Virus record (IMG/VR): IMGVR_UViG_2563366881_000003
Reading direction: 5' to 3' (one strand)
Length of the DNA stretch: 43,633 nucleotides
From: a virus
Taxonomy: Duplodnaviria; Heunggongvirae; Uroviricota; Caudoviricetes
In this document: positions 2,792 to 38,071 of the stretch, piece by piece
Position numbering within the stretch: the stretch's first letter is position 1
How the letters are laid out: each line of letters opens with the position of its first letter
The notes under the pieces: generated by a model
What the model was told of the DNA's origin: nothing
The model's database searches: none
What the model saw: only the letters and a program-made list of their open reading frames with translations
Translations under genes and position numbers: made by a program

Positions 2792-3136
2792 TTAGTCCTT
2801 GCGTAACTCGCTAATTCTTCTGTAAGTCTCTGGTGCTTTGTTTCCGTGTATCTTCATTTCAGACTTCAACAGAGCAACGAGGGAATCCCATTCGTTGAGG
2901 ATGCCTTTGAATGCCGGAACGCGCTTTGCAACCTTGTCGAATGAATCTCTGATTTCTGGGATCTGCTCAACAAGTGCAACGCATCGCCGGAAGTCTGCTG
3001 CGTCATGTGGAGCGCCGAAGTGATGACCATAGATATTCTTTTTCAGTCCACATGCGATTGAGGCAAGAGTTGCGCTACTGATGCCGACATCGCCAGTCGA
3101 TTGCCATTTCAAAACCTTCATAGCCAAATCTGACAT
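2792..3136 (-). CDS. Hypothetical early-left (ea/b-region) protein, 114 aa
   Basis: ORF in the leftward operon distal to the recombination genes; no family recognised. Confidence 0.5.
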   Translation of the reverse strand: MSDLAMKVLKWQSTGDVGISSATLASIACGLKKNIYGHHFGAPHDAADFRRCVALVEQIPEIRDSFDKVAKRVPAFKGILNEWDSLVALLKSEMKIHGNKAPETYRRISELRKD

Positions 3137-3500: not shown

Positions 3501-4070
3501 CTACAGTTGTGGTGCTGCCTCAAGAGCAGCCCTGTAACCAGCAGCATGACCGCGAAAGTTAGCAATCTCTGATAGCCACGCTTTAATCATGGCCTGAGTT
3601 GGTTCCTTCGGCACCATAACCCAACCATCCGGAGTTACCGGATAGTTGCCAGCCAGCTCGTTCAACTTGTAAGTCTGGCTTACAGGTTCGGCACCATGAA
3701 GCATGGCGGCACGGCAGGCATTCCAACCATCAACATAATCAAACGTATTGCCATCGTCTGGCTCGATTTCATCCGGCACTACCGGCGCTGGTTGGGCGGT
3801 GACGTTGGAAAAGGCAGCACGCAACCCTGTCTTAATTTCCTCTACCTCATCAGCGCCTGGCGATGAATCTGACAGTGCGTGATGGAATGCGTAAGCCATG
3901 TCGTCGTTGATTTCTACAGGCACACTATCAGCTTTGCGACGCTCCTGTAGCTCGCGCAGAGCCGCTGCAACATAATGACTATTGTGCTGGTCAGCCCACA
4001 GAATGAGCCGAATCAACGTTGCATTTGAAACGTATTCGTCTGTTAGTTTGCTATTGGTAAAAATGGTCAT
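3501..4070 (-). CDS. Hypothetical phage protein, 189 aa
   Basis: ORF coupled to neighbours in the leftward operon; no family recognised. Confidence 0.5.
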   Translation of the reverse strand: MTIFTNSKLTDEYVSNATLIRLILWADQHNSHYVAAALRELQERRKADSVPVEINDDMAYAFHHALSDSSPGADEVEEIKTGLRAAFSNVTAQPAPVVPDEIEPDDGNTFDYVDGWNACRAAMLHGAEPVSQTYKLNELAGNYPVTPDGWVMVPKEPTQAMIKAWLSEIANFRGHAAGYRAALEAAPQL

Positions 4071-4582
4071 GCCGCGTTTCCTTCTTTCTTATTAACAATT
4101 ACACCGTCATATATTTCATTAAGGTGCCCTCTCAACTCCATGCGCCTTAATGCAGATAACATGTAATCGCATTCAACCTGCTTATTTCCAGTAAATGGCT
4201 TATCGTCAGGATTACCCCAACAGCAATTACCCTTGGGCCACCCATGTACTTTCCGTACTCTTCCGTTAACAACGTGAAGTAATCCCCAGCCAGGTGGTAA
4301 ATCCTCAATTGAAATAATTCCCGGCTCACTAATAAAGAATCGCCAGTCGCCCATTCCAAGAGACGGATTTTTACGAAAACGCTTTTTTCTATCTGCCAAC
4401 AAGTCAGCACGAGAACATTTCGCCTCTATCAGGCATGATGCTGAATTTCTGAATCCCATAGCATCTGGCTGTTCTCCGGTACTGGTTACAGCTATAAAGC
4501 GGTCATGAAAACAAACCTTGAACCCGTTGCGCTTAAGGAACTTGTACGCAATCTGACAGAGTTCGCGGTGTGTTAGCGCCAT
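4067..4582 (-). CDS. Putative PD-(D/E)XK-fold nuclease-like protein, 171 aa
   Basis: Candidate catalytic motif D (PDAMGF) ... E-x-K (LIEAKCSR) plus a Cys cluster; inferred by eye. Confidence 0.4.
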   Translation of the reverse strand: MALTHRELCQIAYKFLKRNGFKVCFHDRFIAVTSTGEQPDAMGFRNSASCLIEAKCSRADLLADRKKRFRKNPSLGMGDWRFFISEPGIISIEDLPPGWGLLHVVNGRVRKVHGWPKGNCCWGNPDDKPFTGNKQVECDYMLSALRRMELRGHLNEIYDGVIVNKKEGNAA

Positions 4583-8513: not shown

Positions 8514-9095
8514 ATGAACAACTCATGGTGGCAGGAACTAATGCATTTTTTCCTGCAAGGAATGACACTTAAACAGTTGATTCATATGCTAATCATCCTG
8601 ATCATATTGATTATTGTTATGCCGGTAAGCGTAAAAGAATGGATAAACCTGCATAATCCAGAAATCCTTCCTCATTACTGGATGTATTACATCCTGTTGT
8701 TTTGCGTTAGCTATGTGCTTAACGGCGTTGTTAATTCCGCTTATTACGCTGTGACTGAAAGAATTGAGGTATTCGCTGCTCAGAAGCGCAAATCTAAAGA
8801 AGAGAAATACGTGCAAGATTTGTTTGATTCGTTAACTCTTGGAGAAAGAGCGTATTTGGCACTCGCTGTAGTCGCTAATAACCAGCTACAAACGGAAAAG
8901 GGAAGCCCTGAAGCAATCTCATTGCTCGAAAAAGGGCTTCTTATTCGGATACCTTCTGCTACTGGATATCCTGAAATCGACCGTTTTGTTATCCCAGAAC
9001 GCTATAGAAATGAGTGCTACATTAGGTTTGCTGGGAAGAAAGACAGTCTTATGGATGAACTTATCGCTCAGGATAAGCACGGCAAAAACAAGTAA
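8514..9095 (+). CDS. SieB-like superinfection-exclusion membrane protein (candidate)
   Basis: 193 aa, two N-terminal TM helices plus soluble C-terminal domain; size, architecture and early-left location resemble SieB of lambda/P22; transcribed opposite to the leftward operon. Confidence 0.45.
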   Translation: MNNSWWQELMHFFLQGMTLKQLIHMLIILIILIIVMPVSVKEWINLHNPEILPHYWMYYILLFCVSYVLNGVVNSAYYAVTERIEVFAAQKRKSKEEKYVQDLFDSLTLGERAYLALAVVANNQLQTEKGSPEAISLLEKGLLIRIPSATGYPEIDRFVIPERYRNECYIRFAGKKDSLMDELIAQDKHGKNK

Positions 9096-9241: not shown

Positions 9242-9775
9242 TTACTGGCTCCGTCCATGATTTTCATGAAAGCCATATAGTGCATTGGCTTCTTTCCTTG
9301 CTTGTTTGGCATCATCTAAAAGTTTGAATGAGCCTAGGTATTTTCGTTTTCCATCCACAGTTATCGATGCAACATAAAACCCATGCTCTTTTCTTTCTTC
9401 AACACCTGTAACTCCAGTTGATGAAGATGATTTTAAAGGCATGTTTTTCATATTCTCTTTGAAAGAAACGCTTCTTAAATTGGAGATTCTGTTGTCATCC
9501 TTAACGCCGTTTATGTGATCAATCACATCAGGCCAGTAGCCATGCACGTAAAGCCATGCAAGTCTGTGAGACTTAAATTTTTTACCTCCAATATTTATTC
9601 TCAGATAACCCTTGTTGTCAGGTGAGCCAGCCTTTTTACCTGGATACTTCTTGTTCCACGTCAAGGCAGCTCTGTTATCCGCAAACAAATGCTTTGCTCT
9701 CGGCTTCCAATAAAAGTCACCACTCACAGGATTGTAATGAAGAATCTCCCTTACAGACACTTGAGTAAGATCCAC
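9242..9775 (-). CDS. HNH endonuclease with AP2-like DNA-binding domain (paralog 1)
   Basis: Motif HRLAWLYVHG...IDHINGVKDDNRISNLR, C-terminal GV(T/S)... AP2-like segment; paralogous to three other ORFs in the window. Confidence 0.8.
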   Translation of the reverse strand: MDLTQVSVREILHYNPVSGDFYWKPRAKHLFADNRAALTWNKKYPGKKAGSPDNKGYLRINIGGKKFKSHRLAWLYVHGYWPDVIDHINGVKDDNRISNLRSVSFKENMKNMPLKSSSSTGVTGVEERKEHGFYVASITVDGKRKYLGSFKLLDDAKQARKEANALYGFHENHGRSQ

Positions 9776-10017
9776 TTAAACCTCCTAACAAAAACACTTC
9801 AATAACCCTCCGGTTATGGAAATGTTCTTTTGTAGTGAGCAGCATTGCCGTTCATCCTGAACCCGCCGCGCTCCCGACGCATGGTTTAAAGACGCGCCGT
9901 TCGTCTATGGGCTTATGATGTACTTAAAGTTCATTAATGTAAAGTACAAATAGTACATTTTATGGGTATAAAAAGCTCACTACATCATAAGTTAGTGAAC
10001 TTTAAGGAAATTTATTT

Positions 10018-10725
10018 TTATCCGAATCGCTTGTAATCGATTGACTGCCTAATGAGGACTTTGGCTAGAATGTGAAGTTGCTCTTCTTCACCTTCTTCTA
10101 TGTACCATCGATCATAAGCGGCATTGTCAGAGATGACGGCAAGCCTGTTCTTTTGCATTTGCAGGCGCTTAACGTGCATTGTTTTCCCGTATACAAACAC
10201 ATAAATGCCATCGCCATCAAAATAGGTTATGGATACATCAACAAAGATCTCATCTCCCGGATTGATGGTTCCCTCCATGCTGTCACCGCGAACCGTGATG
10301 ACTTTTACGCTTTCCTGTGGCCTTCCATTAAATAAAATTCTTGCCTGCTCGGGCGTATATTCAATTGCTCTTATCTTTTCTATAAATTCATTGGAAACCA
10401 TGGTTCCTGGCCCGGCGCTCGCCTGAACATCCAATACATCAACACGATAAGAATCATTTGATCTTGATAGATGATTTACCGTGATACCGTCATAATCAGC
10501 ATAGCCATGCAGATATGCAGCAGTAGTTCCCAGCACCGAAGCCAGAGATTCCATCTTGTCTTTTCTTGGTATTGACTCCCCGTTGAACCATTTACTAATG
10601 GCTTTTGGTGTGACCTTAAGCCTGACAGCTAAATCAGCCTGCCTACCATGCAAAGGTAATCCCGCTTTATCACAGGCCAGCGCAAGCCTCTGCGAGAAAG
10701 TTTCACGCTCTTTCTGTTGAACCAT
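10018..10725 (-). CDS. cI: CI-type prophage repressor (HTH plus S24 LexA-like peptidase domain)
   Basis: C-terminal GDSMEGTINPGDEIFVD ... HVKRL (Ser/Lys dyad); start at MVQQKE (ATG 10725) lies inside an operator palindrome with no SD, consistent with a leaderless transcript. Confidence 0.8.
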   Translation of the reverse strand: MVQQKERETFSQRLALACDKAGLPLHGRQADLAVRLKVTPKAISKWFNGESIPRKDKMESLASVLGTTAAYLHGYADYDGITVNHLSRSNDSYRVDVLDVQASAGPGTMVSNEFIEKIRAIEYTPEQARILFNGRPQESVKVITVRGDSMEGTINPGDEIFVDVSITYFDGDGIYVFVYGKTMHVKRLQMQKNRLAVISDNAAYDRWYIEEGEEEQLHILAKVLIRQSIDYKRFG

Positions 10726-10733
10726 AAGTTCAA
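10717..10733. promoter_or_regulatory. Operator (OR3/OR2-like) palindrome TTGAACcataaGTTCAA overlapping the cI start codon
   Basis: 17-bp site with perfect 6-bp inverted half-sites; a second copy occurs 57 bp away. Confidence 0.6.
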
Positions 10734-10745
10734 CTATATTAGGTA

Positions 10746-10790
10746 TTGACTGTACTATCAGTTCCGTCATAATATGAACCATAAGTTCAC
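10746..10790 (+). promoter_or_regulatory. pR-like promoter (TTGACT-16/17-CATAAT) with OR1-like operator TGAACcataaGTTCA at 10775-10789
   Basis: Consensus-like sigma70 hexamers upstream of cro; operator palindrome overlaps the transcription start region. Confidence 0.6.
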
Positions 10791-10804
10791 CACAGGAGAG
10801 AAGC

Positions 10805-11035
10805 ATGAACGAAGTTACGTTTGGAGAAGTTATCAAATCCGTTCGAGTTTCTGTTGTGGCTGATGTTTGTGGACTTACGCCAAAAGCCATCTATAAGTGG
10901 CTTGAGCGTGGTTCTCTGCCGCGTACCGAGTTCACTGGTGAAACCGAATATGCGGATAAGATCGCCAAGGCATCAGGCGGCAAGTACTCAGCAGCACAGA
11001 TTCGCCGTATCGGTAAACAGCAGTTTGTTATGTAA
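10805..11035 (+). CDS. cro: Cro-like repressor
   Basis: 76-aa HTH-like protein divergent from cI, SD AGGAGAG upstream. Confidence 0.7.
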   Translation: MNEVTFGEVIKSVRVSVVADVCGLTPKAIYKWLERGSLPRTEFTGETEYADKIAKASGGKYSAAQIRRIGKQQFVM

Positions 11036-11156
11036 TAAAAATGTACTTTTAGTACCGAACGGCCCGGTATACGGTCGGGTGCCCGGCGTGGTCAAGGATG
11101 ACTGTCAATGGTGCACGATAAAAACCCAAATTATTTACCTATGGAGATAGTAAGAA

Positions 11157-11453
11157 ATGACACAAGCAAGTTACAGCAAGCCAACACAGCGAGAAATTGA
11201 TCGCGCTGAAACTGATTTACTCATCAACCTGTCAACGCTTACCCAGCGCGGTCTGGCAAAGATGATTGGCTGTCATGAATCGAAGATAAGCAGAACGGAC
11301 TGGAGATTTATTGCTTCGGTCTTGTGTGCTTTCGGAATGGCATCAGACATCAGTCCGATTAGCAGGGCTTTTAAGTATGCGCTTGATGAAATCACAAAGA
11401 AAAAATCCCCGGTGGCCGCCGGGGACTCTAAGCAAATTGATATGCAATTCTGA
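11157..11453 (+). CDS. cII: CII-like transcriptional activator
   Basis: C-terminus KKKSPVAAGDSKQIDMQF resembles recalled lambda CII C-terminus (KKRPAATERSEQIQMEF); HTH GLAKMIGCHESKISR. Confidence 0.8.
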   Translation: MTQASYSKPTQREIDRAETDLLINLSTLTQRGLAKMIGCHESKISRTDWRFIASVLCAFGMASDISPISRAFKYALDEITKKKSPVAAGDSKQIDMQF

Positions 11454-15744: not shown

Positions 15745-16459
15745 GTTAATAAATGGCAATGCCATCAAAATGACAAGCATTGAAATCGCTGAGTTGGTTG
15801 GTAAGCGTCATGACAATGTGAAACGTACCATCGAAACGCTGGCTAAAAATGGTGTTATCCGGCTTCCTCAAATTGAGGTTTCCGAAAGAATCAATAACTT
15901 AGGGTTCAATGTTCAGTACGAGTATTACGTCTTCGAAGGCGAACAAGGAAAGCGAGACAGTATTGTCGTTGTAGCCCAGTTGTCGCCGGAATTCACCGCT
16001 CGTCTTGTTGACCGTTGGCGAGAGCTTGAAGAAGCTGCGGTTAATATCCCCAAAACGCTACCAGAAGCGTTGCGCCTTGCTGCTGATCTTGCTGAGCAGA
16101 AAATGCAACTGGAAAACCAGCTCGCAATTGCCGCACCTAAAGTTGAGTTTGCCGATCGCGTTGGCGAGGCCAGCGGAATTTTGATTGGAAACTTTGCAAA
16201 GGTTGTTGGAATTGGTCCAAACAAACTGTTTGCGTGGATGCGCGATCACAAAATCCTTATTGCTTCAGGTTCCCGGCGCAATGTGCCAATGCAGGAATAT
16301 ATGGATCGCGGCTATTTCACAGTGAAAGAAACAGCGGTCAACACAAATCACGGGATACAGATATCGTTCACCACAAAAATCACCGGGCGTGGTCAACAGT
16401 GGCTGACCAGAAAGCTGCTCGATAACGGAATGCTGAAAGTAACAGGGGAGGCTGCTTAA
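15737..16459 (+). CDS. Rha-family phage regulatory protein / antirepressor-like (KilAC-type C-terminal domain)
   Basis: N-terminal motif SIEIAELVGKRHDNVKRTIETL typical of Rha; 240 aa. Confidence 0.65.
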   Translation: MNELINGNAIKMTSIEIAELVGKRHDNVKRTIETLAKNGVIRLPQIEVSERINNLGFNVQYEYYVFEGEQGKRDSIVVVAQLSPEFTARLVDRWRELEEAAVNIPKTLPEALRLAADLAEQKMQLENQLAIAAPKVEFADRVGEASGILIGNFAKVVGIGPNKLFAWMRDHKILIASGSRRNVPMQEYMDRGYFTVKETAVNTNHGIQISFTTKITGRGQQWLTRKLLDNGMLKVTGEAA

Positions 16460-37824: not shown

Positions 37825-38071
37825 TGTTCTTGCCATAAATTCTTTTCAGTGTATCGAATACCATTTTTTTTACAATTTCAGACTGCTCATCAGCAATTTT
37901 CTCAGCTTCGTTGCGATAACCAACTACAGGAGATGGTTTTGATAGAGCGTCTTGGACGATTTGCAACAGCTCGGAGTTCATAGATCTCCCATTCGCCTCT
38001 GCTCTGAATTTCAATTTTTCTCTCACTTCCAAAGGCATGCGGAAGTTAAAGTGCGGATCATCTCTAGCCAT
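37814..38071 (-). CDS. mnt: Mnt repressor (P22 immI)
   Basis: MARDDPHFNFRMPLEVREKLKFRAEANGRSMNSELLQIVQDALSKPSP... matches recalled P22 Mnt. Confidence 0.9.
   Translation of the reverse strand: MARDDPHFNFRMPLEVREKLKFRAEANGRSMNSELLQIVQDALSKPSPVVGYRNEAEKIADEQSEIVKKMVFDTLKRIYGKNNEG

Follow-up and report, generated by a model that had tools for sequence, protein, structure and literature searches.

Operator and promoter map of an HK022-like immunity region in which the cI start codon lies within OR3

Introduction

Why would the start codon of a repressor gene lie inside a palindrome that the repressor itself may bind? Could such an arrangement work as it does in lambda, or does it belong to a different immunity system? 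These questions are raised by the divergent cI and cro genes in a Caudoviricetes sequence of 43,633 nucleotides (IMG/VR record IMGVR_UViG_2563366881_000003). This whole stretch is called the window here, and all positions refer to it. An earlier note, made from the letters alone, had described two near-identical 17-bp palindromes flanking a consensus pR promoter, with the ATG of cI inside the first of them; it took the cI message from the pRM promoter to be leaderless as in lambda, and suggested that operators unlike those of lambda might mark a distinct immunity specificity. We set out to place these elements among known lambdoid immunity regions, and we assign the interval with high confidence to OR, the right operator/promoter region, of an HK022-type immunity module carried by a mosaic lambdoid Escherichia coli prophage, in which CI would bind at OR1-OR2 and OR3 and the cI message would be leaderless or nearly so.

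Results

Does the locus have a known counterpart? Positions 9780-11160 were searched by megablast against a phage collection and then compared base by base. The stretch from 9833 to 11160 is 99.5% identical to coliphage HK022 (X16093, AF069308/NC_002166) and to the HK022/lambda hybrid O276, and 95% identical to phage HK75. The comparison with X16093 shows 6 mismatches over 1328 bp; the part from 10495 to 11160 is free of them, so that OR3, pR, OR2, OR1, cro and what follows cro match HK022 exactly. The HK75 record labels the homologous sites oR3, oR2, oR1, oL1, oL2 and oL3, and also names OFR (a 'far right' operator), putL and putR. The companion left operators OL1 and OL2, OFR and the flanking put sites are all present in the window, as in the immHK022 module. 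Among 5426 complete E. coli genomes the immunity region was found in 10, the best match being NZ_CP145718 at 99.9%.

Which bases make up the repressor site? The exact 15-mer TGAACCATAAGTTCA occurs twice, as OR3 and as OR1, the two copies starting 57 bp apart (coordinates of all features are given in Table 1). Each copy is embedded in a larger palindrome: a perfect one of 6+5+6 bases around OR3 (10717-10733; TTGAACcataaGTTCAA / TTGAACCATAAGTTCAA) and one of 5+5+5 bases around OR1 (10774-10790; aTGAACcataaGTTCAc / ATGAACCATAAGTTCAC). The operator unit is 15 bp, not 17, with the consensus TG(A/T)AC-N5-GT(T/A)C(A/C); the A just outside it, at 10733, owes its conservation to the pRM -10 hexamer, of which it is the final base. 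Measured between centres, OR1 and OR2 lie 24 bp apart and OR2 and OR3 33 bp.

In place of the exact 15-mer, the half-site pattern TGWAC-N5-GTWC was used to scan the whole 43.6-kb window, with 100 shuffles for comparison. The pattern gave 10 strand matches at 7 places where 0.78 were expected; none of the 100 shuffles reached 10, and all but one of the seven places are clustered in the 1.14 kb surrounding cI and cro. The sole exact match beyond the immunity region (4245-4258, TGTACTTTCCGTAC) lies inside a minus-strand open reading frame at 4067-4582 and is probably due to chance, given the 0.78 matches expected. With one mismatch allowed, the pattern comes near background over the whole window (37 matches vs 24 expected), and such single-mismatch sites were left uninterpreted. 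Searching instead with the 15-mer and 3 mismatches returned OL1 together with weak sites at 9056-9070 and 15894-15908, a marginal result of 5 matches against 1.56 expected.

How do these results bear on the palindromes as first described? The window contains every sequence detail that the earlier note had listed for the two palindromes and the promoter between them, and the proposal that they are repressor operators is supported by their mapping onto the annotated OR3 and OR1 of HK022. The cI ATG at 10725-10723 does lie inside the first palindrome and has no Shine-Dalgarno sequence; the same start is annotated in HK022 (X16093) and, by PGAP, in E. coli NZ_CP145718. The architecture of two 17-bp palindromes holds in part: both sites are real, while the unit is 15 bp and OR comprises three sites, among which OR2 had been overlooked. 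OL1, OL2 and OFR had been missed as well.

Operators and promoters share the interval closely. The pR promoter scores 10/12 in a promoter scan, and its -35 and -10 hexamers, annotated in the X16093, HK75 and O276 records, are kept in relatives. OR2 sits within the pR spacer, shares the final base of the pR -35 hexamer and bears the pRM -35 candidate at its centre; OR1 begins 2 bp past the pR -10 hexamer and spans the predicted pR start point (about 10780-10781). OR3 has at its centre a CAT (10723-10725) that serves, on the minus strand, as the start codon of cI; its left half, TGAAC, is complementary to codons 2-3 of that gene (GTT CAA, Val-Gln), and its right half overlies the predicted pRM start point. 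The two divergent promoters interleave, the -35 hexamer of pRM lying inside the spacer of pR and that of pR inside the spacer of pRM.

Is this layout kept in related phages? A scan of IMG/VR with the CI protein yielded 57 loci; 29 distinct OR sequences were aligned, and 49 distinct loci served to compare site positions, the CI proteins in both sets being 45-100% identical. The 29 sequences align without insertion or deletion from the ribosome-binding site of cro to codon 5 of cI. Six sites (OL1, OL2, OR3, OR2, OR1 and OFR) keep their positions across the 49 loci, with OR3 present at the expected position in 49/49, OR2 in 48/49 and OR1 in 48/49. Within the aligned sequences the half-sites of OR1, OR2 and OR3 are conserved, the centre of OR1 varies freely (CATAA, TACAA, TCCAA, TCTAA and others) and that of OR2 is conserved. 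Half-sites that stay fixed around a variable centre are expected of an operator for a dimeric helix-turn-helix protein. The CAT of OR3 is invariant, and the two bases immediately upstream of the ATG are variable. Because the OR3 arm TGAAC complements cI codons 2-3, the N-terminus Met-Val-Gln is near-universal in the family.

Salmonella phage S9-5 illustrates the same pattern. Its CI protein is 80% identical to that of the window and its DNA about 79% over the region, and it is identical base for base at 10713-10739 (OR3 and the pRM -10 hexamer) and again at 10746-10779 (the pR -35 hexamer, OR2 and the pR -10 hexamer). The changes in S9-5 are confined to a non-functional stretch, 10740-10745, and to the centres of OR1, OL1 and OFR.

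Where does the cI message begin? The sequence before the start codon reads CCTAATATAGTTGAACTT-ATG; here, as in the 29 relatives, it holds no purine-rich or GGAG-like Shine-Dalgarno sequence. The promoter scan found a single promoter-like site on the minus strand upstream of cI, CTGATA-17-TATAGT, with a score of 9/12. Counting from TATAGT, the ATG of cI begins at the 8th base (7 nucleotides between), and from this distance a start is expected at 10725 or 10726, leaving a leader of 0 or 1 nucleotide. The TAnnnT motif 7 nucleotides before the ATG and CTGAnA 17 bp further up are kept in the 29 distinct relatives, with one exception, locus L050, which fits only with a shift of 1 nucleotide (8 nucleotides to the ATG). 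Variants of the -10 hexamer among the relatives are TATAGT, TACAGT, TATGCT, TATATT, TATGAT and TATTAT, in all of which the key positions T1, A2 and T6 are kept. In the PMC8053113 supplement an independent laboratory marks a 'PM -10' within 20 nucleotides upstream of the HK022 cI ATG; a reported 5' end for HK022 pRM was not found in the accessible full-text literature. From the conserved register of these hexamers we infer that the pRM transcript of cI is leaderless or nearly so, with a leader of 0-1 nucleotide; this is the best reading and a well-supported one.

How would such a region be regulated? CI is expected to bind cooperatively to OR1, over the pR start point, and to OR2, filling the pR spacer, and so to turn off pR and cro. 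Further sites for the same CI would be OL1 together with OL2 at pL, and the downstream neighbour of cro, OFR. The cI message would begin at the AUG or 1 nucleotide before it. OR3 would span about -6 to +9 of pRM, its right half covering -6 to -1/+1, and its occupation by CI at high concentration, or by Cro, would then block cI transcription and provide negative autoregulation. Given the overlap of pR and pRM, RNA polymerase can probably occupy only one of them at a time.

Several points weigh against this reading. The operator features of X16093 are labelled 'potential' binding sites. The 7th base after TATAGT is a T, and a leader of 1 nucleotide is as likely as a strictly leaderless message. 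Presumably cI is also transcribed from the CII-dependent promoter pE, with a long leader that still offers no Shine-Dalgarno sequence; the pE transcript being long-leadered, cI would not be leaderless on every transcript. Finally, the pRM -35 candidate lies wholly inside OR2 (centred about -33), which is hard to square with a lambda-style activation by OR2-bound CI.

Could the HK022-like layout then imply a control of pRM that is not that of lambda? OR3 on the start codon, codons 2-3 serving as an operator half-site, the pRM -35 hexamer in the centre of OR2 and the interleaved -35 hexamers would all fit such a view, in which CI at OR2 would be unable to activate from -42. Instead, pRM might come on through removal of polymerase from the overlapping pR, or polymerase and CI might share OR2 on opposite faces of the helix. 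We regard this proposal, drawn from the arrangement of the sites, as doubtful. The operation of pRM while OR2 is occupied is the only point here with residual novelty, and papers from the 1990s may already settle it.

Might the maintenance transcript instead carry a short leader, starting 4-6 nucleotides upstream of the ATG from the -10 hexamer TAATAT (10741-10736, minus strand) and translated by way of its A/U-rich upstream sequence? TAATAT matches the -10 consensus at 5/6 positions and overlaps TATAGT, and the region before the ATG is indeed A/U-rich. Its register, however, is not conserved, relatives having GGATAC, AGATAT or GTCTAT, whereas that of TATAGT keeps T1, A2 and T6 in nearly all of the 29 sequences, and the promoter scan returned only CTGATA-17-TATAGT. 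A short-leadered message is thus improbable, and on the strength of conservation in relatives we reject TAATAT as the pRM -10 hexamer.

Could translation begin further upstream altogether, on a leadered transcript, with the ATG in the palindrome merely internal? The mechanically called open reading frame extends from 10890 to 10018 (290 amino acids), and in-frame ATG codons on the minus strand occur at 10890, at 10770 and, in the centre of OR1, at 10782. The ATG at 10782 nevertheless exists only in the HK022 lineage, most relatives having TACAA, TCCAA or TCTAA at the centre of OR1 and no ATG there, whereas 29/29 relatives keep ATG-GTT-CA at 10725, with the N-terminus Met-Val-(Gln/His/Leu). The extension would also have to be encoded antisense to the pR promoter and to the start of cro, the upstream codons likewise lack a Shine-Dalgarno sequence, and both GenBank and PGAP begin cI at 10725. 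We consider an upstream start very improbable, and reject the ATGs at 10782, 10770 and 10890 on the strength of conservation in relatives.

That the palindromes arose by chance, or that they form a hairpin in RNA or DNA with no part in repressor binding, has a negligible likelihood: short palindromes are common and nothing further speaks for it, whereas an exact 15-mer present twice at a distance of 57 bp, a degenerate pattern enriched more than 10-fold with 6/7 places around cI and cro, conserved half-sites with varying centres (which mark an operator for a helix-turn-helix dimer and not a hairpin) and identity to the annotated HK022 operators all speak against it, and the comparative evidence excludes it.

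The CI protein contains an HTH_3 helix-turn-helix domain (residues 28-72) and a self-cleaving Peptidase_S24 domain (Pfam). It is identical to HK022 CI at 231/235 residues, differing by D78Y, Y92S, T125P and C168Y. All four differences lie past the HTH_3 match, in the linker and the C-terminal S24 domain; since they are all outside HTH_3, the specificity should be that of HK022. In O276 the recorded cI allele is cIts12. According to PMC8053113, which cites Carlson & Little 1993, the HK022 repressor occupies neighbouring operators cooperatively and joins OL and OR in a loop in vivo, and a further CI operator, about 300 bp to the right of (downstream of) OR, contributes to immunity; the cooperativity is very high, with a factor of about 2000 given for HK022 CI in PMC7498355, again citing Carlson & Little 1993.

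On the left side of cI, OL1 overlaps the -10 hexamer of pL and OL2 abuts its -35 hexamer. Position 9948, in the centre of OL2, is A here but C in HK022 and most relatives (AGTACAAATAGTACA vs AGTACCAATAGTACA); it is outside the half-sites, and the A variant occurs in 1/49 distinct related loci. Just past the cI stop codon the minus-strand RNA can form a hairpin followed by UUUUUAU (9972-10003; -11.6 kcal/mol, z = -3.55), which is probably the cI terminator; its arms AAGTTCA/TGAACTT are kept in relatives and its loop is variable. The cI-proximal arm, TGAACTTTAAGGAAA at 9996-10010, lies 53 bp from OL2 (centre to centre) and resembles an inverted OL1 (repeat I4). The 'oL3' of the HK75 record maps to about 9965-9979 (GGTATAAAAAGCTCA) and is unconvincing as an operator, and judged by its sequence 9996-10010 would be the better candidate for OL3.

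To the right, OFR immediately follows the stop codon of cro and is in turn closely followed by putR; its centre is 267 bp from that of OR1. Carlson & Little 1993, cited in PMC8053113, reportedly described it as making it harder for virulent mutants to arise. The put sites are RNA elements that make HK022 transcription resistant to terminators without an N protein. Here the resemblance of putL and putR to each other is visible as the inverted repeats I1 and I3. Scanning 9700-11300 against Rfam, which has no putL/putR family, returned only one spurious, sub-threshold microRNA match. Further right, the annotation of pE in X16093 maps to 11147-11175 on the minus strand. Two GCAA motifs, at 11166-11169 and 11176-11179, form TTGC-N6-TTGC on that strand within the start of cII, which is the lambda-type CII recognition repeat.

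Table 1. Features of the immunity region and its left neighbours, in window coordinates. X16093 positions convert to window positions with an offset of +7718; pRM is predicted.
Element	Position	Strand	Sequence, motifs or product	Basis
OR3	10718-10732		TGAACCATAAGTTCA	X16093 'oR pot. repressor binding site' 3000-3014
OR2	10751-10765		TGTACTATCAGTTCC	X16093 oR site 3033-3047; matches TGWAC-N5-GTWC
OR1	10775-10789		TGAACCATAAGTTCA	X16093 oR site 3057-3071
pR	10746-10773	+	-35 TTGACT 10746-10751; 16-bp spacer; -10 CATAAT 10768-10773	
pRM (predicted)	10733-10761	-	-35 CTGATA 10761-10756; 17-bp spacer; -10 TATAGT 10738-10733	
cI	10018-10725	-	235 amino acids	start and stop as annotated in X16093 and by PGAP
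cro ribosome-binding site	10794-10798	+	AGGAG	feature mapped from X16093
cro	10805-11035	+	76 amino acids	identical to HK022 cro; interval without mismatch
OL1	9919-9933		TGTACTTAAAGTTCA	X16093 oL site 2201-2215; pattern match; conserved in relatives
OL2	9943-9957		AGTACAAATAGTACA	X16093 oL site 2225-2239; pattern match; conserved in relatives
pL		-	-35 TTTACA 9943-9938; -10 CATCAT 9920-9915	X16093 features
OFR ('far right' operator)	11042-11056		TGTACTTTTAGTACC	HK75 annotation of homologous site; pattern match; conserved in relatives
putL	9837-9899	-		annotated in O276 and HK75; inside the 99.5%-identical stretch
putR	11060-11116	+		annotated in O276 and HK75; inside the 99.5%-identical stretch
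HNH endonuclease gene	9242-9775	-		Pfam HNH_3
sieB	8514-9095	+		

The homology with HK022 breaks off at 9833, immediately beyond putL, so that a mosaic junction lies right at the put site. Positions 9780-9911 match Salmonella phage UPF_BP1 at 96%, and over much of its first 25 kb the window is similar to podoviruses like P22 and HK620, as well as to HK97 and HK629.

Discussion

What, then, does the embedded start codon tell us? The finding itself is already known: these are OR3 and OR1 of HK022, described and annotated before (X16093, HM173637), and since the OR of HK022 has been sequenced, annotated and biochemically studied since 1989-1993, its discovery value is small. The comparison with known lambdoid immunity operators shows the operator/promoter stretch to be 100% identical to HK022, and the distinct immunity specificity that had been suspected is real without being new, being the classical HK022 immunity at 99.5% identity. 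By its sequence the prophage is of the immHK022 type and should be homoimmune with HK022, HK75 and O276. A complete operator map is now given in window coordinates. The conservation of the embedded start codon and of the pRM hexamers across a broad family of enterobacterial prophages, moreover, is decent indirect evidence that leaderless cI messages are not confined to lambda. The claim of a leaderless pRM transcript as in lambda survives in one respect and fails in the other: the absence of a leader is supported by the conserved TAnnnT register, while the operator geometry is a different one.

Compared with HK022, the window has the same operator, promoter, cI and cro coordinates and the same OFR, putL and putR, with 100% identity over OR3-pR-OR2-OR1-cro. 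It differs by the four CI substitutions, outside the HTH_3 match, and by one base in the OL2 centre, at 9948. Left of putL, where HK022 carries nun, the window has the HNH endonuclease gene and sieB. The wider HK022-like family (S9-5 and the IMG/VR contigs L019-L061) shares the six-site layout, the spacings, the start codon in OR3 and the pRM hexamers, and keeps this layout although CI identity drops to about 45-52%. These relatives have other centres in OR1, OL1 and OFR, and OR1 equals OR3 only in the HK022 lineage.

How far does the likeness to lambda go? Both systems have divergent cI and cro genes with three operators between them and OR1 and OR2 24 bp apart, a cI gene without a Shine-Dalgarno sequence and with the -10 hexamer just upstream of its ATG, and a LexA-like repressor with helix-turn-helix and S24 domains. 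The marks of a lambda-type leaderless message are found here, namely no Shine-Dalgarno sequence and a -10 hexamer placed for a start at the AUG (leader of 0-1 nucleotide). The geometry is another matter. For lambda we took it from the annotation of NC_001416 (OR3 37951-37967, OR2 37974-37990, OR1 37998-38014, cI ATG 37940), where the ATG lies 10 nucleotides outside OR3; here it lies at the centre of OR3. The centres of OR3, OR2 and OR1 stand at -19, -42 and -66 from the ATG in lambda, and at about 0, about -33 and about -57 in the window; OR2 and OR3 are 23 bp apart in lambda and 33 bp here. A lambda-type pRM would have OR2 near -42, abutting the -35 hexamer, and OR3 over the -10 and -35 hexamers, whereas the distances found are 33 bp and 0 bp. 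As the earlier note had it, the operators are unlike those of lambda, which a check against the annotated lambda OR sites confirmed: lambda operators are 17 bp long, those of the window are 15-bp TGAAC-N5-GTTCA sites, and the sequences do not resemble each other. Lambda operators are of the TATCACCGC type. In lambda the start points of pR and pRM lie about 83 bp apart, whereas in the window about 55 bp separate the predicted start points, and the -35 hexamers of the two promoters interleave.

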